Source: a virus (taxonomy: Duplodnaviria > Caudoviricetes). Taken from it: 64,000 nt of DNA. Numbering within the stretch: position 1 is the stretch's first letter; each line of letters begins with the position of its first letter. The notes below the pieces were generated by a model. The model was given only the letters and a program-made list of their open reading frames with translations. It was not told the origin of the DNA and made no database searches. The stretch lies in IMG/VR virus record IMGVR_UViG_3300034374_009547; one strand, 5' to 3'. Below, piece after piece: positions 38,216 through 55,505 of the stretch. The position numbers and the translations under genes were made by a program.

Positions 38216-38354
38216 CGTGATTGACAGCGCAGAACCTAAACTCACTCAATATGAAACTTTTGAAACTGCTATGAGTTGTCATATTGAACAGGCTGTACTC
38301 GAAGCAGACTTTACACAAGAAGAAATAGCGTTCTGCGAGGACCCGAATGAATAA
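38190..38354 (+). CDS. Small hypothetical protein (54 aa, not in track)
   Basis: MWTLWIISSVIDSAEPK...SCH...FCE; fills the gap between neighbours. Confidence 0.5.
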   Translation: MWTLWIISSVIDSAEPKLTQYETFETAMSCHIEQAVLEADFTQEEIAFCEDPNE

Positions 38355-39848: not shown

Positions 39849-40580
39849 ATGAAAGACATTCTACAAGACATTGTAAGCCATACACATTCGTTAGGCATTA
39901 TTTCAACACTTAAAATTACAACAGAAAATGATATCACAACTATTGAAAGTATGGCAGACGATAGAAGTGTTATTATGACAGCAACAACACATTCACCAGT
40001 AGGCGAATTTGTAGGTACATTTGGTATGCCTGATTTAGGTAAACTAGCTTATCATTTAAAAAATCCAATGTACAGAGAAAATGCTAAAATTGAAGTAATA
40101 AGTGCAGAACGCAACGGTGAAGTTGTTCCAACACATATTCACTTTGAAAACGATACAGGTGACTTTAAAAACGATTATCGTTTTATGATTAAAGAAATTA
40201 TCGAAGAAAAAATTAAAAAGTTTAGTTTTAAAGTTAATACATATGATGTAGAAATCCAGCCAAGAATTGGTAAAATTGAACAAATGAAATACATGCAAGG
40301 CGGACACACAGAAGAAACGGTGTTCCAAGTTAAAACTGAAAATGATAACTTGGTATTTTATTTTGGTGATGATGTAACACACGCAGGTAACTTTGTATTT
40401 GAGCAAGGTATTACTGGAAAACTAACACATACATGGGCATGGCCTGTTTCACAAACTATTGCTATTTTGAACTTGGATGGTGATAAAACTATGAGCATCA
40501 CAGACCAAGGTGCTATGAAGATTAGTGTAGACAGCGGCATGGCAAAATACGATTACATTCTACCGGCTCAACAAAAATAA
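39849..40580 (+). CDS. Putative sliding clamp (gp45/PCNA-like)
   Basis: 243 aa, alternating beta/alpha, C-terminal YDYILPA resembling the PCNA terminus; PolB and clamp loader are in the window. Confidence 0.55.
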   Translation: MKDILQDIVSHTHSLGIISTLKITTENDITTIESMADDRSVIMTATTHSPVGEFVGTFGMPDLGKLAYHLKNPMYRENAKIEVISAERNGEVVPTHIHFENDTGDFKNDYRFMIKEIIEEKIKKFSFKVNTYDVEIQPRIGKIEQMKYMQGGHTEETVFQVKTENDNLVFYFGDDVTHAGNFVFEQGITGKLTHTWAWPVSQTIAILNLDGDKTMSITDQGAMKISVDSGMAKYDYILPAQQK

Positions 40581-42136
40581 TGAAAACAAACCTAACTGAA
40601 ACACAAAAAGATTATGCAGTATTTTTACCTAGTATTAGCGGCTTTTATGGCACGTTTGTAGGTAAACAAAGATATGAAGATTATGTTGATCCTTCTCGTG
40701 TTCCAGCAGGTTTAGGCAATGTAGAAAGTCTTAATTTTTTAAATCCTAAAGACGGAGCATTCCATTACAAGTGGGCGCTCTATTCTGCTGGTCACGCAGA
40801 TTTAGATACGACTAAATTTGTTGATAAAGAAGATATGGTGCGTAACCGTGATAGAGATAATTCATGGTTGCTAGGCGACTCAGGTGGTTTCCAAATTGCT
40901 AAAGGGTTGTGGCCCGGTGACTGGACTAGCGAAACTTGTCCACATGCAAATAAAAAACGTGAGCTTGTTGTAAACTGGATGGAAGAATACATGGACTACG
41001 GAATGATGCTTGATATTCCTACATGGACCTTCCAAAGTGCAAAAGCAAGTAAAGCAACTAACATAAAAAGTTATGATGATGCTGTAAAAGCTACTCATAT
41101 TAATGCACGTTATTACATGAAACATAGACGTGGTAACTTTAAGGTATTAAACGTACTACAAGGCAGTAATCATACTAATGCCGATAGTTGGTATGAAGAA
41201 TTCAAAGGTTATTGTGATCCAAAACAATATCCAGATACACACTTTAATGGCTGGGCAATGGGTGGTCAAAACATGTGTGATGTTCATTTGATTTTACGCA
41301 GACTTGTACACATGATACACGATGGATTACTTGAACAAGGGCTGCATGATGTAATGCACTTCTTGGGCACAAGTAAACTAGAATGGGCTGTGTTACTTAC
41401 TGACATACAACGAGCTGTTCGCAAATATCATAATCCTAACTTTATGATTACATATGATTGTGCATCTCCTTTTCTTGCAACAGCAAACGGTCAAATTTAT
41501 CATAACATTAGATTAGATCACAAAGGCAAATGGAGTTATATTATGAGTCCAGGTGCTGACGCTTTGAAATATGCTAGTGATACTAGAAGTTTTATAGACG
41601 CAGTACTACAAGATGGCTTATTACCTACATTTGAAGAATCTCCTGTTAGTCAACACTGCAAAATGAATGATATTTGCATTTATGCTCCAGGCGATAAAAA
41701 CAAAGTTGGTACTATTAAAGTTGAAAAAGGTAAGCCAGAACTTGATAAACAAGGTAATCCTTTACTAGACGATAACGGAAATCCAATTATTATGCGTAAA
41801 GATAGCACAAGTTGGGATTCATTTAGTTATGCGCTACAAATGGGTCATAATGTTTGGATGCATATTGAAAGTACACAACGTGCAAACGAGCGTTATGATG
41901 CAGGAGAATATCCTTACATGATGGTATACGAACCAAGTATTAGACATGTGTTTAGAGATATTGTCAATGAAATCTTTGCACAAAAAGATCGTGAAAAAAG
42001 TCTTGCAGTTATTAACAAATATGGTGACGATAAATCGCTAAGTATTTGGACACACATTATTGGTACTAGATTGAAAGTTGGTAAGAAAACAATAACACCG
42101 GAAGCAAAAGCAGACGAATTATTTGATTGGGGTTGA
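40580..42136 (+). CDS. dpdA: TGT-fold guanine transglycosylase (DpdA-like, DNA 7-deazaguanine insertion)
   Basis: LGDSGGFQ, MMLDIP, VLQG, GWAMGG, MHFLG and YDCASP motifs of the TGT superfamily; linked to folE/queE/queD-like genes. Confidence 0.75.
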   Translation: MKTNLTETQKDYAVFLPSISGFYGTFVGKQRYEDYVDPSRVPAGLGNVESLNFLNPKDGAFHYKWALYSAGHADLDTTKFVDKEDMVRNRDRDNSWLLGDSGGFQIAKGLWPGDWTSETCPHANKKRELVVNWMEEYMDYGMMLDIPTWTFQSAKASKATNIKSYDDAVKATHINARYYMKHRRGNFKVLNVLQGSNHTNADSWYEEFKGYCDPKQYPDTHFNGWAMGGQNMCDVHLILRRLVHMIHDGLLEQGLHDVMHFLGTSKLEWAVLLTDIQRAVRKYHNPNFMITYDCASPFLATANGQIYHNIRLDHKGKWSYIMSPGADALKYASDTRSFIDAVLQDGLLPTFEESPVSQHCKMNDICIYAPGDKNKVGTIKVEKGKPELDKQGNPLLDDNGNPIIMRKDSTSWDSFSYALQMGHNVWMHIESTQRANERYDAGEYPYMMVYEPSIRHVFRDIVNEIFAQKDREKSLAVINKYGDDKSLSIWTHIIGTRLKVGKKTITPEAKADELFDWG

Positions 42137-42359: not shown

Positions 42360-42516
42360 AAAGAAAGTTAGATTAGAACATATTGATATGGCTTTAGAAG
42401 AACTTGATAAAATCATTGACACAATGAATAAAAAAGGCTATAGTAATGAAAAAATAAACGAGTTTAACAAACAACGTTGGAATCTTTGGAATGAAAGGTA
42501 TAGGCTTAAACAATGA
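42346..42516 (+). CDS. Small hypothetical protein (56 aa, not in track)
   Basis: Open frame; ATGA overlap with the next gene. Confidence 0.5.
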   Translation: MDEHEKKVRLEHIDMALEELDKIIDTMNKKGYSNEKINEFNKQRWNLWNERYRLKQ

Positions 42517-43019
42517 AACGAGATTATGATAGTGGTGTAACATCAGAAGGTGTAAACTTTTTTGTTGGTACTGAAGTAGAACACACACCGCAGTTTGGTA
42601 AGAAAACACTTTTTGTTGTAGGTGTACAAAACTTTGAAGAAATTGTAGAACACGCAGATAAAGCGGGTGTAGATCATATTTACTTGGGTGCTAATATGAG
42701 TTGGAGCAAGGACGAGTCTTGGGACGAAATGGTATTTCCATTGTTGAAAGACGGTTACTGGGTAACACTAGATTTTCCTGTGCAAGACATTGAATGGGTG
42801 CTAGAGTGCGGCTATACAGAATACAATCGCTTTATTCCAATGATTAGCGTAAAAATGCCTTACATTGATCTACTAGGTTACAATGCTTGTTTAAAAGTAG
42901 ATGACAAGGATTTTGATGCTACTAATCCAGGTGTATGGGTACATCGTGTACATGATTTAAAAGATAAATCAAAGTTTACAGATTGGTCTAAATACACCAC
43001 AGATGAAATTATCGCTTGA
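42513..43019 (+). CDS. Conserved hypothetical protein in the dpdA locus
   Basis: G.EVEHTP.FG..TLFV and NPGVWVH motifs. Confidence 0.65.
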   Translation: MKRDYDSGVTSEGVNFFVGTEVEHTPQFGKKTLFVVGVQNFEEIVEHADKAGVDHIYLGANMSWSKDESWDEMVFPLLKDGYWVTLDFPVQDIEWVLECGYTEYNRFIPMISVKMPYIDLLGYNACLKVDDKDFDATNPGVWVHRVHDLKDKSKFTDWSKYTTDEIIA

Positions 43020-43044
43020 CAATATGCAACAAGAACGTTATTAT
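43016..43044 (+). promoter_or_regulatory. Sigma70-like promoter TTGACA-N17-TATTAT
   Basis: Exact spacing; overlaps the annotated start of the QueD-like ORF, so the true start may lie downstream. Confidence 0.55.
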
Positions 43045-43473
43045 GAATATATGAAACGGCGCAACAGAGAAGAGGACGCTAAATTGAACGCATTAGAAAA
43101 TGCAAAACGCAGTATTTGGGTAACTTTTACAAAAGAAGGTATCCACAAGTATCCAGCAGCACTGGAAGATCCAGCACTGGCAACAGGTGATGAATATGAT
43201 GTAAGTTTCTTAGGTTATCCACATCGTCATATGTTCCATTTTAAAGTGCAAATTCAAGTTACACACAATGACCGTGACATTGAATTTATCCAGTTCAAAC
43301 GATGGCTGGAATCATTGTATGCAGGAGACATCTTGCAACTAGATTACAAGAGCTGTGAAATGATTGCAGACGACTTGTACACACAAATTAACAGCAAATA
43401 TCCCGGCCGGTTTGTTGTTATTGATGTCGCCGAAGATGGCGAAAACGGCTGTCAAATTGTATACCCAGCATAA
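43024..43473 (+). CDS. queD: QueD/PTPS-like T-fold protein (putative 6-carboxytetrahydropterin synthase)
   Basis: H...HRHMFHFKV zinc-His pattern and SCE(M) motif; location in the folE/queE/dpdA locus; divergent. Confidence 0.55.
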   Translation: MQQERYYEYMKRRNREEDAKLNALENAKRSIWVTFTKEGIHKYPAALEDPALATGDEYDVSFLGYPHRHMFHFKVQIQVTHNDRDIEFIQFKRWLESLYAGDILQLDYKSCEMIADDLYTQINSKYPGRFVVIDVAEDGENGCQIVYPA

Positions 43474-43487
43474 AGGAAAAAGGTATA

Positions 43488-43676
43488 ATGACTATCTCTA
43501 ATCCGGTAGTAAATAAAATTTTTAACGATCTTGAGGAACTGCACGACTTCTGCAGAACTGAAGGTTATCCATTTAACCAAGCAGATTTGTATAAGAAAGA
43601 TGCTCGTGTATGGCAGGCATTTCAAAAATACAAAAATTGGGTCCGTGCTAGAAATCGCACCAAAGGACGCAAATAA
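43488..43676 (+). CDS. Hypothetical protein
   Basis: AAGGA RBS; TAATG coupling. Confidence 0.6.
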   Translation: MTISNPVVNKIFNDLEELHDFCRTEGYPFNQADLYKKDARVWQAFQKYKNWVRARNRTKGRK

Positions 43677-44851
43677 TGCGTAAGCTGTTTTACATGGGCT
43701 TAGAGCCCTATGAAGGCAGGTACACATTACAACTTGAAGAATGGAGTAGGCGTGCGTTTCAACGCCGCTCCATTGATTGGGTTAATGTACCTGGTACAAC
43801 TATTGACAATACAAAAGCAATTCAAGTAGGCCAAGTGTTAGATGCACATGGCCGTTCCTACTTTGCAATGTCGCAAATGATGAACTTGGTGCAAATGATG
43901 CGTAACGGTGAAGTTACAGGCGAAGATGTAGTTTTCTTTGAAGATATGTTCCAGCCTGGTATGGAATCGCTTCCGTATATTATGGATCAGATTCCCACTG
44001 AGCAACGTCCACAGGTTTGGATTCGTTGTTTAGCACAAGCAGTTGATCCAGATGACTTTGTGCATGTTTGGGGCATGGGCAAGTGGATGAGTTTGTATGA
44101 AGAAATGTGCAACGAGTTTGTTACTGGCGTACTAGCAAGTAATGAAGAAATGGTTGCACACATGAAGATTGCAAACTGGAAGGCTCCTATCTACAATGTT
44201 TCAGGTCTTGCATTTGATAAAACAGAAGTTGCTCTACGTGTTGGCGAGATCAACACTTGGGAAAAGCGTGACAATCGTGTGGTATTTGCAGCACGTTTTG
44301 ATCAAGAAAAACAACCAGACTTTTATATGGATTTGATTGAAGAATGGTATGGTACACCAGGTACAGCAGACGTGGAGTTTTGCATTGTGCAAGGTGGCCC
44401 GCTACGCAGTAACAATCAAAAGTATATTGATCGTGCCCGCAAAATGGAAGAGCGTGGACAACTGGTAATTTATGAAAACTTGAAAAAGAATCATTACTAT
44501 GATATTGTAAATCGTAGTAAAGTTTTGTTCAATTGTGCTTTGCAGGATTGGACAAGCAATACGGTAAGCGAAGCAGATGCATTAGGATGCAATGTGTTGT
44601 TTCCAGCGTATCGCAGTTTTCCAGAAATCTTTGCTAATGATCATACACGCATGTATGTGCCTTGGAGTGTTGAAGATGCAATGAACAAGTTAACGCCATT
44701 ACTAAAAAGCGCACATAAAGACTTAGGTAAGATAAGCGATTGGACTAGTGCAACTATTGATCGTTATATTGATATTATGCAAGGTAACGGTGAACAATGG
44801 CGTAGAGATAGCAATCGTTATCGTGATTATGTTGCGGAGACAAAATATTGA
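43676..44851 (+). CDS. GT-B fold glycosyltransferase
   Basis: FAARFDQEKQP, NCALQDWTSNTVSEADALGCNVLFP (E-x7-E-like region replaced by D-x7-E). Confidence 0.75.
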   Translation: MRKLFYMGLEPYEGRYTLQLEEWSRRAFQRRSIDWVNVPGTTIDNTKAIQVGQVLDAHGRSYFAMSQMMNLVQMMRNGEVTGEDVVFFEDMFQPGMESLPYIMDQIPTEQRPQVWIRCLAQAVDPDDFVHVWGMGKWMSLYEEMCNEFVTGVLASNEEMVAHMKIANWKAPIYNVSGLAFDKTEVALRVGEINTWEKRDNRVVFAARFDQEKQPDFYMDLIEEWYGTPGTADVEFCIVQGGPLRSNNQKYIDRARKMEERGQLVIYENLKKNHYYDIVNRSKVLFNCALQDWTSNTVSEADALGCNVLFPAYRSFPEIFANDHTRMYVPWSVEDAMNKLTPLLKSAHKDLGKISDWTSATIDRYIDIMQGNGEQWRRDSNRYRDYVAETKY

Positions 44852-45714
44852 GAGTATTGGTCACAGGTGCTACAGGTTATATTGGCAGTCATGTTTGTAA
44901 ACTACTAAAAGAGCATGGACATCACGTTACTGCTTGGGATATAAATATTCATGGTGAATACAATGACATCATGGCATATTGTGACCATTATTCTTCTTAT
45001 GATATAACTAAGTTTGTACATGGTGGCTTTGACGCCGTTGTACACTTAGCAGGACGCAGTGTAGTACCTGATAGTTTACGTGAACCTACAGAATATTATC
45101 GTGTAAACGTGATGGGTACTGCAAACTTGTTAGATCGTGTCGAAACACCACACATACTATTTGCAAGCACTAGTAGTGCTTGGGAAATGGCATCACCATA
45201 TGCACGTAGCAAAGTGGCAGCAGAAGATGTAATTAAGGAGAAAGCCAATGGATACACTATCTTTAGATTTTTTAACGTATCTGGTACTGACGGGCATAAT
45301 CGTCAACTGGGCGTTCCTACCCATCTTATTCGTGTTGCTGCTATGGTGGCTGCTGAAAAACTACCCAACATTAAGATCTTTGGTACGGACTATGATACTA
45401 GGGATGGTACTTGTATTCGTGATTATATTCATGTTGTTGATTTGGCTCGTGCCATTGTCAACGGAGTGGAACGAGGTCCAGCCAATACGGACTATGAGTG
45501 CCTTGGTAGCAACGTAGGTTATAGTGTACGAGAAGTAATCAGTACTATGGAGCAAGTTACTGGTAAAAAGTTAAATATCATTGAAGCAGAACGCAGAGAA
45601 GGCGATGCTGTTGCCAGTGTTGTAGACAACCTAAGTGATCTAGTTACACTGGAAAAAAGCATCGAAGATATGTGTTTGGATCAATACAAATTGGAAGTTG
45701 GTAAAAATGGATGA
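44848..45714 (+). CDS. galE: UDP-glucose 4-epimerase (extended SDR)
   Basis: TGATGYIG, YARSK, FRFFNV, GTCIRDYIHVVDLA. Confidence 0.9.
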   Translation: MRVLVTGATGYIGSHVCKLLKEHGHHVTAWDINIHGEYNDIMAYCDHYSSYDITKFVHGGFDAVVHLAGRSVVPDSLREPTEYYRVNVMGTANLLDRVETPHILFASTSSAWEMASPYARSKVAAEDVIKEKANGYTIFRFFNVSGTDGHNRQLGVPTHLIRVAAMVAAEKLPNIKIFGTDYDTRDGTCIRDYIHVVDLARAIVNGVERGPANTDYECLGSNVGYSVREVISTMEQVTGKKLNIIEAERREGDAVASVVDNLSDLVTLEKSIEDMCLDQYKLEVGKNG

Positions 45715-45937
45715 ATTAGTAGCACAAAGTAAAGTTATTATTGAACATTTAGATAATGGCGACTTGATGAGTTGTTATAGTGTTTTTGAAGCTAATATTA
45801 GAAATATTCTAGATGACTTAGATCAAGATACAAAACTGGTACAACTTTGGCAAACTCAAAGAGGATATGTCGATGATGAAGACTGGGCCTCAGTTATGGA
45901 AAATATTGAAAACATTCGAGCAGTTGTAAATGCGTGA
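45707..45937 (+). CDS. Hypothetical protein
   Basis: Coupled acidic ORF. Confidence 0.55.
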   Translation: MDELVAQSKVIIEHLDNGDLMSCYSVFEANIRNILDDLDQDTKLVQLWQTQRGYVDDEDWASVMENIENIRAVVNA

Positions 45938-46277
45938 TCACAACAACGATACTATTACAATTACAACTGATGATTTGGATAAATCAGGCGTAACAATTCA
46001 AGGTCATTATTATGGAAATACTATTGATATAGGCACTATATCAACAAGCACACTTGAATACAATGGAATTGATGATTTAGTTTCGCTTGATGATTTTTCG
46101 ATTACACTAAATGATCCTGTTGAGTTTGAAGATCGTATGCCCGATGTTGCCAAGATAGAAGACATGTGCAATGATTATCCAGCACTAGCAAAAGCATATG
46201 AAAATTTTAAAACTATGTATGCTATGGTGCATCAAGACTGGAAAGGTCGACAAGAGGATGACCCACTTCCATTTTAA
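45930..46277 (+). CDS. Hypothetical protein
   Basis: GTG start; YPAL.KAYE.FK..Y motif. Confidence 0.6.
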   Translation: MRDHNNDTITITTDDLDKSGVTIQGHYYGNTIDIGTISTSTLEYNGIDDLVSLDDFSITLNDPVEFEDRMPDVAKIEDMCNDYPALAKAYENFKTMYAMVHQDWKGRQEDDPLPF

Positions 46278-46758
46278 CATAGAACCTGTATGGAATATGG
46301 AACGCTATCGTGCGTTAGACTATAAACTAGACCATCATAAAGATACAAATTTAATACAAAAATATTTAGATGCAGGGCATAGTGCAGAGGCTATGACCCT
46401 GTATAACTATTTTGAACCAAATCCTATGCCACCAAGTATAGAATATATTTGCAGTTATTTTCCTACACTTAAAAACATTTCAATTGCAGTCAACCTATTT
46501 AAGCCAGGACAATATTTGCCTGTACATACAGATCTATATGGTGCATATAAAAAATATCATGGTTTGACAAACGAAACAATTTATAGATATATTGTTATGC
46601 TAGAAGATGGTGTAGAAGGACAAATGTCTGTAATTGGAAACAGAGTTTACACCATGTGGAAAGCAGGACAAATATACGGCTGGCAAGATGATGAAAAACA
46701 CACATTTTATAACTTGAGTACAAAGGATAGATATGCAGTCCAAATTACAGGCACATAA
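46258..46758 (+). CDS. 2OG-Fe(II) oxygenase / cupin-like protein
   Basis: PGQYLPVHTD (HxD), R.IVML, G...W...H distal His; GAGG RBS before ATG 46258. Confidence 0.65.
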   Translation: MTHFHFNIEPVWNMERYRALDYKLDHHKDTNLIQKYLDAGHSAEAMTLYNYFEPNPMPPSIEYICSYFPTLKNISIAVNLFKPGQYLPVHTDLYGAYKKYHGLTNETIYRYIVMLEDGVEGQMSVIGNRVYTMWKAGQIYGWQDDEKHTFYNLSTKDRYAVQITGT

Positions 46759-48022
46759 CCGATACGACCAAGTTTTAGAAAAACTTTTCATTATATCAAT
46801 TAACAACAATACCAAGTTTGTAGATAAAGAATACAACTTATTACAAAGTATTGACCATGCTGTAGGTATACATCAAGTTTATACTCACGGATATTTAAAA
46901 ACTTTTAAAAAAAATTATATTGTAATACACGATATGGGAACTATAGACTATATTGAAAATTATTTTTTGAATAGTTATGAACGCAAATCATGTAACAATA
47001 AAGGTTTGTACATTTTTTTAACGGAACAAATATTACACACACATATTCCAGAACAAAAAATAATGTTAGATGGTGATAGCAATTTACCTAATATTTCTAT
47101 AGATTGGCAACAATCACAACACGATAAAATTTGGTCTCCTGAATTATCAAGTATTAATGAATTTGTAAAAAATAATCAATTAACAAATGTTTTTGTTTGT
47201 ATTAGTGCAGAAGATAAACATGGAATTTATGCGGGCAAATATAATTTTAACATACTTCGTAATGACGCTTATGTAAACGCAATAGCAACTTTTTTAGACA
47301 AAAATAAATCTCCAACCCAATTTTTTTCTAGTGATAAAATAGATACACATTTTTGGTGTGGTAATTGGGGATATAGACCGCACAGACACATTGTTACTGC
47401 TTTTGCTAGTAGCTTAGACACCTTGTATAGTTGGGGATATACAGATAGTAAACTTAATTTAGCAAATCATCTATGGTTTGATCCTAAAAAATTTAAGTAC
47501 AAAAAAGAATTACTACAATCGCTAAAACAATTACAACCAAACTCAATTGACATAGATACAGGGCAAACTGAAATCACAGGCACATTATTTGATGTAATGC
47601 TTAGACCCGAGTCTGAATACGAAGGTCCTGATTTAAAAAATTATTCAAGTAAAGAATTATTTTCAAATACATTTTGCAGTATTATTAACAGCAGTACATT
47701 TGGTGAACCATTTGCAGTATATGACGAAAAACCTTTAAATGCTATTATAAATTTTAGACCATTTATACTAGTTGGTCCAGCAGGCAGTTTAGAATTAATG
47801 AAAAAGGACGGTTTTAAAACATTTAGTGATTTTTGGAACGAAAGTTACGACAACGAATATAACCATCAAACAAGATTAGAAAAAATATTTGATTTGCTAT
47901 TAGAAATTGACTCTTGGAGTATTGAAAAATGTAAGCAAATGCACAAAGATATGTATAATATATTAATTCATAATTACAACAGAATAGGTAAAGATTTACA
48001 TGAAATGCGCAGCACTTTATAA
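46733..48022 (+). CDS. Glycosyltransferase-like protein (GT-B, GT10/exostosin-like C-terminal motif)
   Basis: DEKP..AI...RPFILVG...L..DGFKTF..FW.ESYD...R motif; very AT-rich. Confidence 0.5.
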   Translation: MQSKLQAHNRYDQVLEKLFIISINNNTKFVDKEYNLLQSIDHAVGIHQVYTHGYLKTFKKNYIVIHDMGTIDYIENYFLNSYERKSCNNKGLYIFLTEQILHTHIPEQKIMLDGDSNLPNISIDWQQSQHDKIWSPELSSINEFVKNNQLTNVFVCISAEDKHGIYAGKYNFNILRNDAYVNAIATFLDKNKSPTQFFSSDKIDTHFWCGNWGYRPHRHIVTAFASSLDTLYSWGYTDSKLNLANHLWFDPKKFKYKKELLQSLKQLQPNSIDIDTGQTEITGTLFDVMLRPESEYEGPDLKNYSSKELFSNTFCSIINSSTFGEPFAVYDEKPLNAIINFRPFILVGPAGSLELMKKDGFKTFSDFWNESYDNEYNHQTRLEKIFDLLLEIDSWSIEKCKQMHKDMYNILIHNYNRIGKDLHEMRSTL

Positions 48023-48926
48023 TCATACAAATATACGTGGTGGTAATCGTGTGTATCCTTGTTGTCGTTACAAGGAAAGTGTAATGCACTTTGATGGCAA
48101 TGTTGGTAAAATTATGCATAGTTATATGTATAATAAATTACGTGCAGATATGGAAGATGATTGGTTGCCGGGCTGTGGTAAATGCAAACACGAAGAAGAA
48201 CTAGGGGTAGAAAGTTTAAGACAACGGTTTAATTCTCGTTATCAAATGAGCAAACCTACACTGGATTATTTGGAAGTAGGGTTTGATAACATATGTGATT
48301 TAACTTGTGATGGTTGCTGGGAGGAATGGAGCAGCAGCTGGTGGGCTAAAAAGAATCCCGACCTGCCACACAAACAGGGAATTACCAGCACAGAAGAATT
48401 TACACATATACCCAACACTATAAATCGTGTGGTGTTTTTAGGTGGCGAACCACTTATGACAAATAGACACAGACGTTTTTTACAAACATTTGACAATTTA
48501 GAAAATCTATCTGTGGAATATTTTACAAATGGTATGCACAAATTACAAGAAGAAGATTACCAAGTTTTAAGCAAATGCAAACATGTACACTTTACAATCA
48601 GCATAGACGGTATAGGTGTTTTGAATGAACAGGTGCGTAGCGGTAGTGTTTGGAGCAGAGTGGTCAAAACATTAGATGAAATAGCAGATGTATTTGATTA
48701 TACAATACACAGCGTAGTGCATAAAAATAATTGGCACGGTTTACCAGAACTTGCAGAGTTTGCAAAAAAATATAAAAAATGGACAACAAATGTCTTGACA
48801 TTTCCTAAAGAACTGGATATAATAACACTAGAGCAGTGTGACAAAGCAAAACTAGAAAAAATATTGGATACATATGATATACCAAACAGGCAATATATTA
48901 AGGCACACTTACAAGGAGAAGCATGA
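48000..48926 (+). CDS. Radical SAM protein with N-terminal twitch/SPASM-like Cys cluster
   Basis: C...PCC...CGKC N-terminus; NICDLTCDGC; GGEPL; TNG; SIDG. Confidence 0.85.
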   Translation: MKCAALYNHTNIRGGNRVYPCCRYKESVMHFDGNVGKIMHSYMYNKLRADMEDDWLPGCGKCKHEEELGVESLRQRFNSRYQMSKPTLDYLEVGFDNICDLTCDGCWEEWSSSWWAKKNPDLPHKQGITSTEEFTHIPNTINRVVFLGGEPLMTNRHRRFLQTFDNLENLSVEYFTNGMHKLQEEDYQVLSKCKHVHFTISIDGIGVLNEQVRSGSVWSRVVKTLDEIADVFDYTIHSVVHKNNWHGLPELAEFAKKYKKWTTNVLTFPKELDIITLEQCDKAKLEKILDTYDIPNRQYIKAHLQGEA

Positions 48927-49537
48927 TGGACATGCGCAGTTATGAAAATTGGAGAGAACACGGTGCTGATGAAAGTAGTGTAGAAGAAGTAACTTGGAAT
49001 AATAACGATTTGCTTACACTACCTTGGGAAGCAACATATATGACAGACGAGATTCCAGAAGATAGTTCATGGGATACGTTTGCTACAAAAAATAAAAAAG
49101 CACTAGAAGCCATGTACAAACAATGGGGAGTACCTAAAGAAGGTAGTCTACATTATATGAGTATACGTCCAGAACTAACAAAAGGACTTGCTACACTTAT
49201 TGCTCCGTATGCACATATGAAGTTCAATTACAACTTCCTAAAACTAACACCAGGGTGTAGTTTAATGTGGCACTTTGATACATATGCTACATTTGTAAAG
49301 TTCAATAATATCGATGAAGCAGATGCACATCATGTTTGTAGGACCGTTGTGATGATGGATGACTGGGATAGAGGTCAAGTACTACAAGTAGGTGACGAAG
49401 TTTACACAGGCTGGAGTGCAGGAGATACATATACTTGGAAGGGTGATACTTGGCACGGTATGGCTAATTTTGGTCCTACTAATATTGTTATTGCTCAAAT
49501 AACATTCCTGGATGAAGATGACAAATATTCCCAATGA
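48923..49537 (+). CDS. 2OG-Fe(II) oxygenase / cupin-like protein
   Basis: PGCSLMWHFD (HxD), GQV...W..G..Y.W....WHG distal His. Confidence 0.65.
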   Translation: MMDMRSYENWREHGADESSVEEVTWNNNDLLTLPWEATYMTDEIPEDSSWDTFATKNKKALEAMYKQWGVPKEGSLHYMSIRPELTKGLATLIAPYAHMKFNYNFLKLTPGCSLMWHFDTYATFVKFNNIDEADAHHVCRTVVMMDDWDRGQVLQVGDEVYTGWSAGDTYTWKGDTWHGMANFGPTNIVIAQITFLDEDDKYSQ

Positions 49538-50420
49538 TAAGCGTGATATGGATTTTGGCAGTGCTTTTGCTATACAAGATCCAGAAACAATGCGTTTATT
49601 AAGAAAACATTATAACTTTATTGATCTCAATAATGACAGCATTATTGATGAATTTCTGCATGAATACGATACTTGGATTAAATCAGGTACACTAAATGTG
49701 TTTACTGGATTAGAAGATTTTGGTTACAAATGTTATAGTAATGGTACTACAGAAGCATTTGATAAATTTTATATGCGCAATGCTAAACGTAGATTCCGAT
49801 GCTATAAAGGCGAATATATGTATCATAGATTAGCGTGGAGAGACAAGTTTGTTTGGGCATATATTGAAGACGAACCGCTTCACAATGCAGATGCAGTAGT
49901 TATTAGTTTACCATTTGCGGATACAGGTGACAAACACGACAAGTATCACGATCTAATGCGTGAATGTAGTGAACTAGGAATACCAGTATTAGTAGATTGT
50001 GCATATTACGGTGCTTGTAGGCATATACACATAGACTTAGCGTATCCTTGTATTACAGACGTTACGTTTAGTTTGAGCAAAACATTTCCAGTTGCTTACG
50101 CCCGTATAGGTATGCGATATACTAAAGTAGATGACGACGATACAATGTTTGTGTATCACAAAATAAACTACAATAACAAAATAGGTGCATTACTTGGTTT
50201 AGAATATTTTGACAACTTTTCACCCGATTACATACCAAACAAATATATTGACAAACAAGCAGATTTCTGTAATACTATAGGAGTTAGTATTAGTAAAACC
50301 GTGCTATTTGGTATTGATTACAATAATAAGTTTCCGCAATACAACAGAGGCGGACGTACAAATAGACTGAGTTTTCATAAACAATATATTAAAGGATTAG
50401 ATATTGCCGGTACAAAGTAA
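49512..50420 (+). CDS. PLP-dependent fold-type-I enzyme (aminotransferase class I/II-like)
   Basis: NGTTEAF, VLVDCAY (Asp contacting PLP), FSLSKTF (Schiff-base Lys), RIG. Confidence 0.75.
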   Translation: MKMTNIPNDKRDMDFGSAFAIQDPETMRLLRKHYNFIDLNNDSIIDEFLHEYDTWIKSGTLNVFTGLEDFGYKCYSNGTTEAFDKFYMRNAKRRFRCYKGEYMYHRLAWRDKFVWAYIEDEPLHNADAVVISLPFADTGDKHDKYHDLMRECSELGIPVLVDCAYYGACRHIHIDLAYPCITDVTFSLSKTFPVAYARIGMRYTKVDDDDTMFVYHKINYNNKIGALLGLEYFDNFSPDYIPNKYIDKQADFCNTIGVSISKTVLFGIDYNNKFPQYNRGGRTNRLSFHKQYIKGLDIAGTK

Positions 50421-51462
50421 TAACGATTGGGATCCATTAGAAGAGATTATTATCGGCACAGCAGACAATTGTGTGCATCCTACTATGAATATTAGTACAC
50501 ATAGTTTTATATATGGTGGTGAACAATATGAAGATATCAAACACTTTAACGGGCAACCTATTGAACAATGGATTGTCGATGAAGCAAACGAAGATTTAGA
50601 TGGGTTAGAAAAGTGCTTAAAAGATTTAGGTGTTAAAACTAGACGTCCAAAAAGCATCGATCATAACCAAAAGTTTAGCACACCAGAATGGACTACTACA
50701 GGATGGTATACTTTCTGTCCAAGAGATTTGTTGTTGCCTTTAGACAATATGATTGTAGAATGTCCTAGCCCAATGCGAGCAAGATATTTTGAAACTAGAG
50801 CATACTATGACCATTTATATGAATGGATGAAAGAAGGTACACAATGGATTTGTGCGCCTAAACCTATTTTAACTGATGATAACTATCAATTGGAGGACCG
50901 TAGTGAAGCAACCCTTGTTAACAAAGAAATTATTTTTGATGCTCCTAATATCGTTCGTCTTGGTAGGGATCTTCTCTGCCAAGTTAGCAATAGTGGCAAC
51001 CAACTTGGTTTTGAATGGTTACGTACTATTTTAGAGCCAAAAGGCTATCGTATCCACGTAGCAGAAAAATATTATAGTTTTGCACACTTTGATAGCACCG
51101 TATTGCCACTGCGGCCTGGACTAGTGTTGTTTAATGCAGGACGCCTAAGCGAGGATTGGTATCCACCTATTTTTAAAGACTGGGACAAGATTTGGGTAGG
51201 TGAAGAAGATCTACACGTTCCGCCAGCAAACACAGGTGTTGCTCCTTGCTCACCTTATATTGGATTAAACTTTTTGAGTGTTAATCCAGAACTTGTTATT
51301 GTTGATGAAAAGCAAGAAGCACTTAGACGTATACTAGGCAAACATGGTATTGATACAATAGGCCTTCCAATGCGTCAAGCACGTAGCATGAGCGGAGGGT
51401 TTCATTGTGCTACACTAGACACTAAGCGCAAAGGCAGTTTGGAGGATTATTTTGCAACATAG
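50404..51462 (+). CDS. L-arginine:amine amidinotransferase (AGAT / StrB1-like)
   Basis: NDWDPLEEIIIG, CPRD, R.FE, FDA, HFDST, N.LS and GGFHCAT with catalytic Cys. Confidence 0.9.
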   Translation: MPVQSNNDWDPLEEIIIGTADNCVHPTMNISTHSFIYGGEQYEDIKHFNGQPIEQWIVDEANEDLDGLEKCLKDLGVKTRRPKSIDHNQKFSTPEWTTTGWYTFCPRDLLLPLDNMIVECPSPMRARYFETRAYYDHLYEWMKEGTQWICAPKPILTDDNYQLEDRSEATLVNKEIIFDAPNIVRLGRDLLCQVSNSGNQLGFEWLRTILEPKGYRIHVAEKYYSFAHFDSTVLPLRPGLVLFNAGRLSEDWYPPIFKDWDKIWVGEEDLHVPPANTGVAPCSPYIGLNFLSVNPELVIVDEKQEALRRILGKHGIDTIGLPMRQARSMSGGFHCATLDTKRKGSLEDYFAT

Positions 51463-51673
51463 TATAGAACAATGGATTGAACGTATAAATGCAATGAAAG
51501 ATATGTGTATTCAAGCACATAGATTGCGTAATCAATACAGCGAACAAGTTGAAGAAACATACAACTATGCACAAGTAAAAGATATACTAGAGCAAGTGCA
51601 ATCAATGGCCGCCGGTATTGCAAATGAAAAAATAACCGAAATTAAAACAGAAATGGATGAATGGAAAAAATGA
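51452..51673 (+). CDS. Hypothetical protein
   Basis: GGAGG RBS plus TTG start. Confidence 0.55.
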   Translation: MQHSIEQWIERINAMKDMCIQAHRLRNQYSEQVEETYNYAQVKDILEQVQSMAAGIANEKITEIKTEMDEWKK

Positions 51674-52224
51674 AACGCAAACATTATACTTGGGACGATG
51701 TACATAAATGTGCTCACAAACTAGCACTGGAAATGTACAAAACTGGATTCAAACCAGATTATATTGTAGGACTCAACAGAGGCGGTCTGCCTATCAGTGT
51801 TGTGTTAAGCCATTTATTAGACTGCGACCATTATGCGCTAGATGTACGGTTACGTGATAACAAAGGAGAAACTGGACCTGAATCTAACTGCTGGATGGCA
51901 GAAGATGCGTTTGGGTATGTATCTCAAATTGATAGAGATGATGTTTGGAGTAAATCTACTAGCGATACTGCTAAGAAAAAGAAAATTTTAATTGTAGATG
52001 ATATCAACGATACTGGTGCTACATTTAAATGGATTAAAGAAGATTGGCAAGCAGGTTGTTTACCAGATAGTCCAAACTGGGATACCATTTGGAATCAAAA
52101 TGTTCGCTTTGCTGTAATGTGTGAAAAAACACATACCGAGTTTGATGGGGTTGACTATGTATGGCAAACCATAGATACAGGTGAAGAAGATACATGGATT
52201 GTGTTTCCATGGGAATATGATTAA
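51661..52224 (+). CDS. Type I phosphoribosyltransferase (xanthine/guanine PRT-like)
   Basis: VGLNRGG, ILIVDDINDTGAT PRPP-binding loop, WIVFPWE. Confidence 0.88.
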   Translation: MEKMKRKHYTWDDVHKCAHKLALEMYKTGFKPDYIVGLNRGGLPISVVLSHLLDCDHYALDVRLRDNKGETGPESNCWMAEDAFGYVSQIDRDDVWSKSTSDTAKKKKILIVDDINDTGATFKWIKEDWQAGCLPDSPNWDTIWNQNVRFAVMCEKTHTEFDGVDYVWQTIDTGEEDTWIVFPWEYD

Positions 52225-52233
52225 GGAGATAAC

Positions 52234-52362
52234 ATGAGTTGTACATGTGGAAGATCGCCAACAGGACGTTGTGTAGGTTGGCATAGTTTAACAGAGGAGC
52301 AATACCTTGAGAAAAAAGCCGAATATGAAAAAAGACAAGCACTAAAGGAGAAAAAGGAATGA
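52234..52362 (+). CDS. Small CDGSH-like Fe-S/Zn-binding protein (42 aa, not in track)
   Basis: AAGGAG RBS; MSCTCGRSPTGRCVGWH (3Cys-1His) followed by a charged helix; ATGA overlap with next gene. Confidence 0.6.
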   Translation: MSCTCGRSPTGRCVGWHSLTEEQYLEKKAEYEKRQALKEKKE

Positions 52363-52562
52363 AAGAACAACTAGTAAAAGCAGCACGTATGCACGCCGAA
52401 GGTGAGCTCGAAAGAGCAAAAACAAATATTATGGTTTACATGAACCAAAGTGTAGGTATTGGCGAACACAGCGATATCGTCGAAGCAATTCAAGAAGAAC
52501 TTGATAAAATGGCAGCGGCAGAAGATCGTATCGAAATGCTGAGAAAATATTTTGAGGGTTAA
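52359..52562 (+). CDS. Conserved phage hypothetical protein
   Basis: VGIGEHSD motif; AAGGAG RBS. Confidence 0.65.
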   Translation: MKEQLVKAARMHAEGELERAKTNIMVYMNQSVGIGEHSDIVEAIQEELDKMAAAEDRIEMLRKYFEG

Positions 52563-52579
52563 AAACCATAGTTAACCTA

Positions 52580-52608
52580 TTGACAAATAATCTAAATAAT
52601 GTTACTAT
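52580..52608 (+). promoter_or_regulatory. Sigma70-like promoter TTGACA-N17-TACTAT
   Basis: Exact spacing; upstream of folE. Confidence 0.7.
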
Positions 52609-52613
52609 AAACA

Positions 52614-52640
52614 ATAGACATCCTCGTCTATAACTCGGAG
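52614..52640 (+). promoter_or_regulatory. folE leader hairpin adjacent to the SD
   Basis: ATAGAC-ATCCTC-GTCTAT starts at about the predicted +1, followed by AACTCGGAG. Confidence 0.5.
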
Positions 52641-52646
52641 AATAAA

Positions 52647-53378
52647 ATGACAGAAGAAGTAAAAGGACTTAATACTGACAATGTTGAGCCTGTAAAGATT
52701 AGTCAAGTAGTACGTGAAAGACTACAAAAAAACGGTGTTCGTTTTTATGCAAATGACAATATTAGTGAACATATTAGTGAATTTGAATTACAAGAGATTC
52801 AAAACGAATTAAAATACAAGTTCCAAGATGTACTAGATACACTTATTATTGATACAGAAAACGATCCAAACAGCATGGATACTGCAAATCGTTTGGCGAA
52901 GATGTATATTCATGAATTGATGCGTGGAAGGTATTATCCGCAGCCTAATGCAACTGCATTTCCTAATCATACAGATGATGCGTATGATGGTATGCTTGTT
53001 GTGCGTAGCGAACTTAAAAGTGTTTGTTCGCATCACCATCAACCAGTTACAGGTGTAGCATATATTGGTATTCTTGCTGCTGATAAACTTATTGGATTAA
53101 GCAAGTATACACGTATTGCACAATGGTGTGCTAGACGTGGCACACTACAAGAAGAACTTGCAATGGATATCTGTAAAGAAATAATGAAAGTTACAGGTGC
53201 TAAAGATTGTGGTGTTTATATTCAAGCAACACACGGTTGCTGTGAAAATAGAGGCATTATGGCACATAGTAGTTTAACACAAACAAGTGTACTAAAAGGT
53301 GCGTTTAAAACTGATCCTGGTACAAAGAAAGAATTTTTTGATAACATTAAATTACAACAGGAGTTTGCACCGCGATGA
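52647..53378 (+). CDS. folE: GTP cyclohydrolase I
   Basis: SVCSHHHQP, IGLSKY.R, QEEL, ATHGCCENRG. Confidence 0.95.
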   Translation: MTEEVKGLNTDNVEPVKISQVVRERLQKNGVRFYANDNISEHISEFELQEIQNELKYKFQDVLDTLIIDTENDPNSMDTANRLAKMYIHELMRGRYYPQPNATAFPNHTDDAYDGMLVVRSELKSVCSHHHQPVTGVAYIGILAADKLIGLSKYTRIAQWCARRGTLQEELAMDICKEIMKVTGAKDCGVYIQATHGCCENRGIMAHSSLTQTSVLKGAFKTDPGTKKEFFDNIKLQQEFAPR

Positions 53379-54271
53379 AACTAAGATATAGTGAAGCATT
53401 TTATAGTGTGCAAGGCGAAGGCAAATTTGTAGGAGTACCTAGTGTATTCCTACGCACCTTTGGTTGTAACTTTCGTTGTATGAATTTTGGTGTGGATAAA
53501 AGTGTTGGCAGTCGTTGGGAGCAACACGCAAAAGGTCAACGCTACAACGCAGAAGTAAAACAACTGCTAGATGACGGTGTTCATGAAACTACAAAAGAGT
53601 TTAATGATTTGCCTATTGTGCATACAGGCTGCGATACATATGCAAGTATCTATCCAGAATTTAAACACTTCAATATGCTTAAAAGCGTAGATGAAGTTGT
53701 AGAACACTTGTTGAGTTTGTTGCCGGAAGGCAAATGGACTATGGATAATGGACAAGATGTTCATCTTATCCTTACAGGCGGCGAGCCATTACTTGCTTGG
53801 CAACGGTTGTATGTCGAGCTGTTTGAACACCCAGGTATGCAGGATCTAAAAAATGTCACAATCGAAACCAACACTACACAGCATCTACACGATGACTTCT
53901 ACAACTATCTCAATGGTCACGAAAGAATTCAGCTCACTTTTAGCTGTTCTCCCAAACTATCCGTATCGGGCGAGTCTTGGGATGATGCTATTAAGCCTGA
54001 TGTTGCTCGTGAGTATTCCCTTGTTGATGGCAGCAATATGTATTTTAAGTTTGTTGTTGCTGATCAGAGTGATGTTGACGAAGTTGGTAGAGCAGTTGAT
54101 ACCTATCGTAAAGCGGGCGTGGATGTTCCTGTATATCTCATGCCGCTTGGGGGTAGGTCGGAAGAATACACTCTCAACGTACAAGAGGTGGCGAACCTCT
54201 GTATGGAACGAGGGTGGAGGTTCTCGCCAAGACTCCACATTAGCCTATTCGGAAATGCCTGGGGCACTTAA
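53375..54271 (+). CDS. queE: 7-carboxy-7-deazaguanine synthase (radical SAM)
   Basis: EAFYSVQGEG...VFLRTFGCNFRC...CDT, LTGGEP, IETN, SPK, PRLH. Confidence 0.92.
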   Translation: MKLRYSEAFYSVQGEGKFVGVPSVFLRTFGCNFRCMNFGVDKSVGSRWEQHAKGQRYNAEVKQLLDDGVHETTKEFNDLPIVHTGCDTYASIYPEFKHFNMLKSVDEVVEHLLSLLPEGKWTMDNGQDVHLILTGGEPLLAWQRLYVELFEHPGMQDLKNVTIETNTTQHLHDDFYNYLNGHERIQLTFSCSPKLSVSGESWDDAIKPDVAREYSLVDGSNMYFKFVVADQSDVDEVGRAVDTYRKAGVDVPVYLMPLGGRSEEYTLNVQEVANLCMERGWRFSPRLHISLFGNAWGT

Positions 54272-54340
54272 AGAAAACCTAGATAGTATTCCAAAAGGCA
54301 TAAAAAGCGAAGAAGAATACGAACGCATAAGGAAACAACT

Positions 54341-54934
54341 TTGAGATTAATTACATTTGGTTGCAGTCTTACTTTAGGAAGCGGTTTAGAGGATGTAGGC
54401 ATTCGACCTGAGCATCCTAGTAAATTTGCGTGGCCAAATGTACTTTCTACTTTATTAGGATGCACTTTAGAAAATAAAGCTGCTGCTGGTGCTAGTAACA
54501 AACAAATACAAAAGTTAGTTCAAGAATACAATTTTGTAAGTAACGATGTAGTGGTAATTTTATGGAGTCATAAAGACAGATGGTGTGTTTTTGACGGTGA
54601 TTTTACAAATCAAATTAATGCATGGGATAGTGACATAAAAAGTAAAATGTTTTTTAAATTTTTGCACAATGACACAGATATGTCTATGGATCTACATAAC
54701 AGAATACATTATGTAAATATGTATCTAAACAATAAAAAAATTAAAAACTTTCATTTATATGCAGATATTATGTATAAAAATACATATAAATGGTTTGATG
54801 TTGATATGCTCCATACAAACATGGCAGAACTAAGACATGCAAATCCACCAGCAAAATATGACCATCATCCGGGTATTGAAGCACATAGTATATTTGCTAA
54901 TCAAGTGTATAAAGAAATAAAGGAAAAAATATGA
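54341..54934 (+). CDS. SGNH/GDSL-like hydrolase or acyltransferase
   Basis: FGCSLT.G, N.A..GASN, DHHPG..AH; AT-rich. Confidence 0.6.
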   Translation: MRLITFGCSLTLGSGLEDVGIRPEHPSKFAWPNVLSTLLGCTLENKAAAGASNKQIQKLVQEYNFVSNDVVVILWSHKDRWCVFDGDFTNQINAWDSDIKSKMFFKFLHNDTDMSMDLHNRIHYVNMYLNNKKIKNFHLYADIMYKNTYKWFDVDMLHTNMAELRHANPPAKYDHHPGIEAHSIFANQVYKEIKEKI

Positions 54935-55314
54935 AACAATGGTTAAAACGTGTAACTGGCATTGAAGCACGAGAAAAAGAACTAGAAGCCAAAGAACTAG
55001 CAGTACTAGATAAAACTGATCCTAAGGCTGCTGCTACAAAACGCAAAGAGCCTTGGGTAAATGTGCTAGACATGCAAGTAAATGAAGAAAATATTCGCAA
55101 CGGTTTTTTTGAGTTAGATTGGAACAAATACTTTATCCAAGAACTACTAGCAGCAGGATATGGTAGTGAAGGTGACGAAGAAGAACAAATTGTCGACCGT
55201 TGGTTCAAAGATATTATTTTTAACATGTTGCAAGAAGAAGGACTTGACACAAGTCGCGGAGCCGGTTATATTAATGTAGTACCAATAGACAAAGGCAAAA
55301 GCGAGGTATCATGA
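54931..55314 (+). CDS. Conserved phage hypothetical protein
   Basis: G.FELDWN.YF...L...GY motif. Confidence 0.65.
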   Translation: MKQWLKRVTGIEAREKELEAKELAVLDKTDPKAAATKRKEPWVNVLDMQVNEENIRNGFFELDWNKYFIQELLAAGYGSEGDEEEQIVDRWFKDIIFNMLQEEGLDTSRGAGYINVVPIDKGKSEVS

Positions 55315-55505
55315 AAGTTGCAAAAAATATGATTCTGATAAAGGGCAATCATAGTATGGCGTTTAGTGTAAGACGCCGCAAGGAGTTGGTTGAAATTGAC
55401 TTTTACAAAGACACTTACAAATATCTTACACAAAAATTATCTCTTGACGAAGGCTCTGTTGTATACTATAATGCTATTGAACTAGGCTACAAAGAGGCAT
55501 TCTAA
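55311..55505 (+). CDS. Hypothetical protein
   Basis: Coupled at both ends. Confidence 0.5.
   Translation: MKVAKNMILIKGNHSMAFSVRRRKELVEIDFYKDTYKYLTQKLSLDEGSVVYYNAIELGYKEAF
55444..55472 (+). promoter_or_regulatory. Sigma70-like promoter TTGACG-N17-TATAAT
   Basis: Exact spacing; upstream of RNase H. Confidence 0.65.

Follow-up and report, generated by a model that had tools for sequence, protein, structure and literature searches.

What do six closely packed enzyme genes of an uncultured freshwater jumbo phage make together, and where does their product go? The genes, here called A to F, lie on the plus strand at positions 46258-51462 of a 64,000-nucleotide stretch (the window) of the IMG/VR record IMGVR_UViG_3300034374_009547. 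An initial annotation, made from the sequence alone, had read them as a six-gene island for a guanidino sugar or an arginine-like unit that would be attached to DNA or to the virion. The analysis reported here shows that the island consists of a conserved four-gene core, C-D-E-F, joined to a variable A-B module, and is not one six-gene unit. With a confidence that stays somewhat under an even chance, we propose that the core is a cassette installing a guanidino group on a sugar-type substrate, and that the A-B pair serves sugar tailoring and transfer.

A four-gene core and a variable pair

The open reading frames (ORFs) of the six genes form a chain on the plus strand that extends from 46198 or 46258 to 51462, with overlaps of 4-26 nt at each of their junctions, so that the description of six overlapping, gap-free ORFs held. 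The two possible beginnings concern gene A: its longest ORF begins at 46198, and the start initially annotated, at 46258, is supported by the starts of homologues and by an AAGAGG box before the ATG. The gap-free chain is longer than the six genes, running from the gene for a GT1-family glycosyltransferase (43676) to the end of a phosphoribosyltransferase (PRTase) gene (52224). Homologues of A to F were found at 25-100% identity, with invariant catalytic residues, and each of the six is a real gene. The impression that the island is partly much more AT-rich than its flanks applies mainly to B, whose GC content is 28.5% against 36.1% for the whole window, and not to the other five genes (33.7-38.9%).

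The relationship among the six genes emerged from a set of 60 related IMG/VR loci, 43 of which carry enough flank for adjacency and order to be counted. In 37 of these 43 loci E is the gene immediately before F, and 29 retain the order C-D-E-F, at 40-95% protein identity and also across differing genomic neighbourhoods. The A-B pair, in contrast, occurs at this position solely in L009 and L063, and it diverges between near-identical strains: the D, E, F and FolE proteins of L063 are 100% identical to those of the window, whereas identity is 77% for A, 48% for B and 57% for the small upstream ORF o115. What survives of the single six-gene unit is thus its C-D-E-F part. A comparison of L063:1876-3691 with window positions 46258-48022 reveals a sharply bounded hot spot of allele replacement, in agreement with the deviant GC content of B. 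A-B is a variable, swappable cupin and glycosyltransferase module; its fast allele exchange suggests a role in an arms race or in specificity, and this hypervariable pair looks like the arms-race end of the system.

An insertion hot spot of variable content, at which genes similar to UDP-glucose dehydrogenase (UGDH), B-type glycosyltransferases and A-B itself come and go, is also what would be seen if the six were unrelated cargo genes, gathered at a recombination hot spot with no joint function. This explanation is very improbable for the island as a whole: the order of the core persists over that wide range of identity and of neighbourhoods, start and stop codons overlap, and A-type and B-type proteins occur as natural fusions. 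For C to F, it is largely refuted by the synteny.

Many aquatic jumbo phages share the core. In jumbo phages other than this one, it is found in islands of radical S-adenosylmethionine (SAM) enzymes and glycosyltransferases beside T4-like gp13/gp15 genes, accompanied by genes for UGDH-like proteins, epimerases, DegT enzymes and additional amidinotransferases. In addition, a related set is present in the complete genome of the cyanophage S-SCSM2R, which has neither FolE nor QueD. These occurrences argue for an autonomous core, whose position beside deazaguanine genes is particular to the lineage of the window. In L068 and S-SCSM2R, a DegT-type sugar aminotransferase adjoins the amidinotransferase instead. 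Another type of phage carries, at L066:5336-12877, a trio of pyridoxal phosphate (PLP) enzyme, amidinotransferase and SPASM-type radical SAM enzyme with no cupin, 4 kb from a QueD (PTPS) gene and adjoining genes for an Fe-S assembly protein and a 3154-aa protein. A search of genome contigs returned four related loci, two of them close matches, which are probably phage contigs in metagenome-assembled genomes or drafts. The 120 closest of the protein clusters matching F lie on phage-sized contigs (at most 340 kb), and megablast of the region against phage records gave no match.

The enzymes and the route they could form

The six enzyme classes first proposed (oxygenase, glycosyltransferase-like, radical SAM, oxygenase, PLP enzyme and amidinotransferase) all held up on profiles, residues and structure models, the oxygenases transitively. 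The best match of F (50404..51462, plus strand, TTG start, a core gene) in the Protein Data Bank (PDB) is the inosamine-phosphate amidinotransferase StrB1 (1bwd, E 1.5e-86, 294 bits), over its full length (residues 4-349), with weaker matches to HsvA (2.8e-64), SxtG (2.1e-59) and AGAT (1e-55). F also matches PHROG 25854, and 2384 protein clusters match it at E<=1e-20. It carries the catalytic Cys of a G-G-x-H-C motif together with the His and Asp that mark the StrB1/AGAT pentein fold: D108, H228, D230 and H334-C335 are invariant in 15 relatives, and position 179 is either D or E. As judged from its sequence, F is a bona fide amidinotransferase of this fold, predicted to be L-arginine-dependent.

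The assignment of the preceding core gene, E (49512..50420, plus strand), came from structure. Searches with Pfam, PHROGs and NCBIfam yielded nothing, or matches too weak for use, for A, B, D and E; for E there was no usable sequence match, PF00155 was not reached by sequence, and the sequence profiles of E, B and the cupins gave no significant match against the PDB. The AlphaFold (AF2) model of E (predicted local distance difference test, pLDDT, 86.7; predicted template modelling score, pTM, 0.87) retrieved HisC and CobD by Foldseek at E 1e-10, and VIA aligned it with many class I/II aminotransferases at Z of about 22, the top structural matches being HisC, CobD, DapL and AspAT-type enzymes. 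Invariant residues include the S189-K190 motif with the Schiff-base lysine (K190), the aspartate facing the pyridine nitrogen (D162) and the C-terminal R279 and R285. The modelled fold therefore places E, as a prediction, among the fold-type I, class I/II aminotransferase-like PLP enzymes. A sugar aminotransferase of the DegT/DnrJ/EryC1/StrS (StsC) type was considered and rejected, given the lack of a PF01041 match and these top structures.

C, the first core gene (48000..48926, plus strand), scores 172.5 bits with NF033640, just above the curated cut-off of 170, and matches PF04055 at E 2e-9. Its cluster motif, CX3CX2C, lies at residues 99-106 (C99-C103-C106), and in 16 sequences the N-terminal cysteines C3, C21, C59 and C62 are invariant and C22 is nearly so. 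By these sequence features, C is a radical SAM enzyme of the NF033640 subfamily with an N-terminal auxiliary-cluster (Twitch) module. Its profile matches structures of the SPASM/Twitch clade in general, namely SkfB, CteB, MoaA, anSME, YydG and BlsE, and none of them specifically.

The two remaining small proteins, A (46258..46758, plus strand, the first half of the variable module) and D (48923..49537, plus strand, a core gene), are paralogous cupins (BLASTP E 1e-13). Neither has a Pfam match of its own. An H-x-D...H triad (H117, D119 and H178 in D numbering) is invariant in all 18 family members compared, A included, and a profile search gathered 970 relatives, one of which (P0339, found at E 2.6e-20) passes the Pfam cut-off for PhyH (25.9 versus 22 bits). 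Other members match PF05118 (Asp_Arg_Hydrox) and PF13640 (2OG-FeII_Oxy_3) weakly, the cluster of D's neighbours by ESM features carries PF05118, and against the PDB the profile gave a weak match, at the distal His, to the TauD-family enzyme AtsK (E 0.057). Comparison of the cupin profile by hhalign was not significant either with a PF05118-positive neighbour or with a 173-aa protein encoded upstream of the amidinotransferase of phage CP220. A and D are supported, transitively, as cupins of the 2-oxoglutarate (2OG)/Fe(II)-oxygenase type.

B (46733..48022, plus strand), the AT-rich and swappable member of the variable module, has no Pfam or PHROG match, and membership of GT10 was not reached by Pfam. 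Its AF2 model (pLDDT 75.6) aligned by VIA, over residues 24-429, with dozens of GT-B enzymes at Z from 10.9 to 8; all of the top rows were GT-B, as were the top 50 of Foldseek, though at E of only about 1e-3. T4 beta- and alpha-glucosyltransferases and alpha-1,3-fucosyltransferases are tied at the top (Z 10-10.9), with 10.9 for the T4 beta-glucosyltransferase 1c3j and 10.0 for both AGT (1y6f) and FucT (5zoi). The model thus indicates a GT-B-fold, glycosyltransferase-like protein, of a family found only in viruses. Two metagenomic proteins link this family physically to the cupins: P0321 (595 aa) is a fusion of a cupin and a B-type GT-B domain (hhalign E 2.6e-57), and P0336 (1018 aa) places the same pair behind a 470-aa N-terminus of no known type (hhalign E 1.3e-52). 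A third (P0263, 397 aa) is a natural fusion of a DegT aminotransferase and a cupin.

How might these enzymes act together? By analogy with related families, D, as a 2OG/Fe(II)-type cupin, could hydroxylate or otherwise prepare a carbon, and C could oxidize the resulting carbinol to a ketone or aldehyde, in the manner of BtrN or anSME. E would then convert this carbonyl to a primary amine by transamination, and F would transfer the amidino group of L-arginine to the amine made by E, releasing ornithine. Four enzymes would be enough for the overall path from C-H through C-OH, C=O and C-NH2 to the guanidine C-NH-C(=NH)NH2. That E and F are neighbours in 37 of 43 loci agrees with one enzyme supplying the amine that the other consumes, which is the logic of StsC and StrB1. 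The A-B pair would tailor and transfer the sugar. Families, catalytic residues, synteny, fusions and insertion architecture are observations, from which we infer the sequence of reactions, what C and D do, and the route's substrate and target. A guanidino product is also the most economical reading of the set, in line with the part of the initial annotation that proposed one.

The substrate would most likely be of the sugar or cyclitol type, probably nucleotide-activated, and would be made with the help of the GalE-like epimerase, GT1 and the UGDH-like and phosphomannomutase (PMM)-like proteins encoded nearby. A sugar is favoured by several observations. The DegT-cupin and cupin-GT-B fusions tie the cupins to sugar chemistry; sugar enzymes (GT-A and GT-B glycosyltransferases, UGDH-like proteins, epimerases and DegT) neighbour the core in every context; the window itself holds the four local genes just named; and the closest characterised relative of F, StrB1, uses an aminocyclitol phosphate as its substrate. 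The 24 proteins encoded at 38-55 kb are all free of transmembrane-like segments, so the chemistry, and with it the making and use of the product, would be cytoplasmic. Of the destinations considered, a glycan on a phage-made macromolecule such as a virion protein is the most probable, with the odds still somewhat against it; attachment to the virion is possible.

Several points weigh against this proposal. E belongs to class I/II (HisC/CobD-like) and not to the DegT type, and has C-terminal arginines typical of enzymes that bind carboxylates or phosphates, so the substrate may be an amino or keto acid or a phosphate ester and not a sugar. C, in sequence and profile comparisons, has no specific similarity to BtrN or to any other known radical SAM dehydrogenase, and its oxidizing role is for that reason suggested by analogy alone. 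Among the proteins identified there is no NDP-sugar pyrophosphorylase, kinase or acceptor. The cassette lies in a frame of DNA-modification and replication genes and overlaps the chain of a purine-type PRTase, which favours a link to nucleotides or DNA. In favour of the proposal, freshwater metatranscriptome contigs lie on the genes for GT1, the epimerase, D, E, F, the PRTase, FolE and QueE, and not on B, and transcription of D, E and F is possible; contigs from RNA libraries may, however, hold carried-over DNA.

In another explanation, the cassette converts a protein or peptide side chain on a virion protein, for instance Ser or the beta-carbon of Asp/Asn, through an aldehyde and an amine to a guanidine, with C acting like anSME and D like an Asp/Asn beta-hydroxylase. 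The profile of C does match enzymes that modify peptides or proteins (SkfB, CteB, YydG and anSME), the cupins are nearest to the Asp/Asn beta-hydroxylase family PF05118, and E resembles amino-acid aminotransferases. We nevertheless regard this as decidedly improbable: there is no precursor peptide or obvious substrate gene, the fusion partners are sugar enzymes (DegT, GT-B) instead of peptide-binding domains, and PLP aminotransferases and amidinotransferases are not known to act on proteins.

The relatives of F raise yet another explanation, a diffusible, aminoglycoside-like or other guanidino metabolite, produced in the course of infection, that would inhibit competitors, host functions or rival phages. 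Its nearest characterised relatives, StrB1, SxtG and HsvA, are natural-product enzymes, the whole enzyme set is soluble, with no evident acceptor protein, and a 2025 paper on a cyanophage proposed such genes as 'antibiotic synthesis genes' (PMC12801897). Against this, the locus has no scaffold synthase, exporter or self-resistance gene, and the glycosyltransferases, including those fused to cupins, point to transfer onto an acceptor. A lytic jumbo phage would, moreover, gain little from a secreted antibiotic in the short time available. A metabolite of this kind is improbable.

The deazaguanine frame and the neighbouring genes

The IMG/VR record that contains the window is 113.7 kb long, with a CheckV completeness of 32%, and its DNA polymerase is nearest to those of Sinorhizobium phage Phosso, Agrobacterium phage Atu_ph07 and Vibrio phage 2.275.O. 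The island had been placed inside a deazaguanine locus, and so it is: genes for FolE (52647-53378, plus strand, PF01227 1.1e-38) and QueE (53375-54271, plus strand, PHROG 2076 QueE 6.5e-52) begin 1.2 kb downstream, and 2.8 kb upstream lies o156 (43003..43473, plus strand), a QueD paralogue of the DpdL type. The motif LxxxHRHxF is the signature of DpdL, the proposed 7-carboxy-7-deazaguanine (CDG) decarboxylase, a name given to proteins of Acidovorax phage ACP17 and Cellulophaga phage phiST (PMC10516641). The LGYPHRHMF of o156 fits this motif, and its homologues include those ACP17 (54%) and phiST (36%) proteins as well as gp166 of Pseudomonas phage PA5oct (64%). These sequences would imply a modification of the 2'-deoxy-7-deazaguanosine (dDG) type in this jumbo-phage lineage, the cultured PA5oct and Phosso included. 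The set known from dDG-type loci is represented by FolE, QueD, QueE and DpdL, with no clear QueC; QueD and a weak QueC-like gene are encoded far from the island. The latter, at 9274-9888, encodes a 204-aa PP-loop ATPase with weak, partial matches of the QueC/TilS/AsnB type, and is the sole QueC-like candidate in the record.

A transglycosylase of the DpdA type was sought with PF01702 (TGT) and PF20314 (DUF6610), and neither search found anything, although PF01702 also misses the DpdA3 of CP220. The 518-aa protein o518 (40580..42136, plus strand) is a candidate for a very divergent DpdA by synteny only: in PA5oct, Phosso and Vibrio phage 2.275.O alike, its gene comes before those for DpdL/QueE, and sequence searches of Pfam, PHROGs and the PDB yielded no match. 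Tailoring of the preQ1 aminomethyl type was rejected, there being no QueF here and the DpdL route leaving C7 unsubstituted.

The arrangement DNA polymerase-o243-o518-x-DpdL-o115...PRTase...QueE-x-o127-exonuclease is shared with PA5oct, which lacks the 8.9-kb block from GT1 to o67; this argues that the island was inserted into a deazaguanine locus of the dDG type. QueF-YhhQ-QueC-Gat occupy that frame in Vibrio phage 2.275.O. The PRTase (51661-52224, plus strand) matches PF00156 at 2.2e-12 and PDB 1vdm at 8e-8, with a weak match to the XPRT model. It is a divergent, purine-type enzyme, and with the coiled-coil-like o73 it forms a pair at 51452..52224 on the plus strand, the overlaps at F/o73 and o73/PRTase being 11 and 13 nt. 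Its gene thus sits in the chain between those of the amidinotransferase and FolE, and gp163 of PA5oct is a weak match to it. The enzyme could convert a free deazapurine base to the nucleotide, which would be a pre-replicative route.

This setting suggests a different destination, namely that the cassette, together with the DpdA candidate, DpdL, PRTase, FolE and QueE, builds a guanidino group on a base, on a deazapurine nucleotide or on a DNA-linked sugar, giving cationic, restriction-resistant DNA. The block is inserted exactly in the DNA polymerase-o518-DpdL-o115...PRTase-FolE-QueE-exonuclease frame, which PA5oct shares and which in 2.275.O contains QueF-YhhQ-QueC; its gene chain from GT1 runs without gaps into the PRTase gene; and wherever the contig of a relative of 60-95% identity extends far enough downstream, PRTase and FolE/QueE come after F. 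T4 DNA glucosyltransferases are among the structures nearest to B, though tied with fucosyltransferases, and radical SAM and PLP enzymes are known to sculpt amino acids on phage DNA (PMC8989533). On the other side, the product of the DpdL route is 7-deazaguanine, with neither an amine nor a hydroxyl to serve as a handle, and the DNA modification reported for CP220, which carries a radical SAM/amidinotransferase module, is 2'-deoxy-7-amido-7-deazaguanosine (dADG) (PMC10516641). Nor is there the handle commonly used in DNA glycosylation: a ThyA-type hydroxymethylase was found neither in the 113.7-kb record nor in a relative, 91% complete, that bears an amidinotransferase (this one is only 39% identical, and the core was not found beside it). 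The radical SAM and PLP families of thymidine hypermodification differ from those encoded here, and the core also exists apart from deazaguanine genes, both in other jumbo phages and in the cyanophage genome that lacks FolE and QueD. A build-up of this kind is unlikely, and distinctly unlikely in the narrower form of a guanidino substituent on phage DNA or on a deazapurine nucleotide, made by a cassette wired between DpdL and PRTase/FolE/QueE. If true, phage DNA would carry, together with 7-deazaguanine, a hypermodification that is arginine-like and permanently cationic, the first of its kind. Of the two targets named at the outset, DNA is possible but not supported, its attachment having no direct evidence.

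Turning to the remaining neighbours, the GT1-family GT-B glycosyltransferase (43676-44851, plus strand; Pfam Glycos_transf_1, weak) and the GalE-like epimerase (44848-45714, plus strand; Epimerase 4.8e-37, TIGR01179 galE 7e-60) are syntenic with the core in the closest relatives. They are followed by the small ORFs o79 and o115 (45698..46277, plus strand), the second of which recurs upstream of C in relatives and has a weak counterpart in PA5oct. The DNA polymerase region is followed directly by two adjoining genes, for a eukaryotic-type PMM-like HAD protein (38347-39060) and for a protein of the UDP-glucose/GDP-mannose dehydrogenase family of only 248 aa that lacks the C-terminal domain (39057-39803); comparable short UGDH-like genes stand beside the core in other phages (L069, L020 and L042).

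Scans of the region for promoters and terminators gave counts not above those of shuffled sequence. Seven sigma-70-like plus-strand sites with at least 11 of 12 consensus matches lie within 42416-55472, with a total promoter-like count not above shuffled sequence, and one of the seven, at 48795-48823, is a perfect TTGACA-17-TATAAT within the 3' end of C, a short way before D. At least 12 freshwater metagenome samples contain almost the whole stretch (at least 90% of sampled words). In three freshwater metatranscriptome libraries that cover most genes of the chain, contigs are missing from the 3' end of A and from B (46456-47526), a stretch that an identical 3.5-kb contig from a DNA run does cover; strain variation or low expression may account for the missing RNA contigs.

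Comparison with known systems

In aquatic metagenomes, StrB1-like amidinotransferases and their PLP, radical SAM and oxygenase partners make up thousands of protein clusters. If four enzymes do lead compactly from C-H or C-OH to a guanidinium, this would be new enzymology and a useful biocatalytic module. Its product, whether a virion glycan, a DNA adduct or a metabolite, would uncover a further level of conflict between phage and host or between phages.

The statement that no phage system with this set had been described proved too strong. A radical SAM and amidinotransferase module was noted in the Campylobacter phages CP220 and CPt10 by Timms in 2010 (PMC2853527), and a set of PLP, radical SAM, oxygenase, amidinotransferase and glycosyltransferase genes was noted in Synechococcus phage S-SCSM2R in 2025 (PMC12801897), in both cases with no function assigned. 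These modules cluster the same enzyme classes in large phages. Unlike the island described here, they contain several radical SAM genes, GT-A enzymes and DegT-type PLP enzymes, and lie outside a deazaguanine frame. In S-SCSM2R, the run comprises genes for a protein similar to 3-amino-5-hydroxybenzoate (AHBA) synthase, a radical SAM enzyme, a glycosyltransferase, an oxygenase, an amidinotransferase and a GT2 enzyme, the cupin being 44% identical to A and the amidinotransferase 36% to F. Since these carriers are cultured, the question is directly testable.

The deazaguanine context, as distinct from the island, resembles the dDG-type locus of phiST, which encodes DpdA3, DpdL, FolE, QueD and QueE (PMC10516641). 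The window has a DpdL-motif protein homologous to those of phiST and ACP17, FolE and QueE, a QueD elsewhere and no clear QueC; it differs in the added 8.9-kb sugar/guanidino block, in the purine-type PRTase and in that its DpdA, o518, is a candidate. With the thymidine hypermodification of phages M6 and ViI, the island shares the use of phage radical SAM and PLP enzymes that sculpt an appended group. That system employs a radical SAM enzyme similar to spore photoproduct lyase (SPL) and a fold-type II PLP decarboxylase, and needs 5-hydroxymethyldeoxyuridine (5-hmdU), 5-HMUDK and aGPT-Pplase (PMC8989533). As the enzyme families differ and no ThyA-like hydroxymethylase was found in the 113.7-kb record, it was rejected as an identity for the island.

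The closest parallels are with antibiotic pathways. In the butirosin/2-deoxystreptamine pathway, the Twitch radical SAM enzyme BtrN oxidizes a carbinol and a PLP enzyme then transaminates the product, the same logic of oxidation followed by transamination that is proposed here; unlike BtrN, C has its auxiliary-cluster cysteines at the N-terminus (NF033640) and shows no specific sequence match to that enzyme. The capreomycidine pathway, one of two analogies drawn in the initial annotation, was rejected, its full set of enzymes not being present; capreomycidine synthesis is not known to use an amidinotransferase. The other analogy, the streptidine branch of streptomycin biosynthesis (StsC and StrB1), holds as a resemblance, in that an amine-forming PLP enzyme adjoins an L-arginine:amine amidinotransferase and F is nearest to StrB1. 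It does not hold as membership: E is of class I/II and not of the StsC type, oxidation would be carried out by a radical SAM enzyme, the setting is a phage, and the gap-free chain has no DegT-type aminotransferase, kinase, phosphatase or inositol dehydrogenase, so the streptidine pathway itself was rejected. The island is, instead, a variation on the known aminotransferase/amidinotransferase logic.

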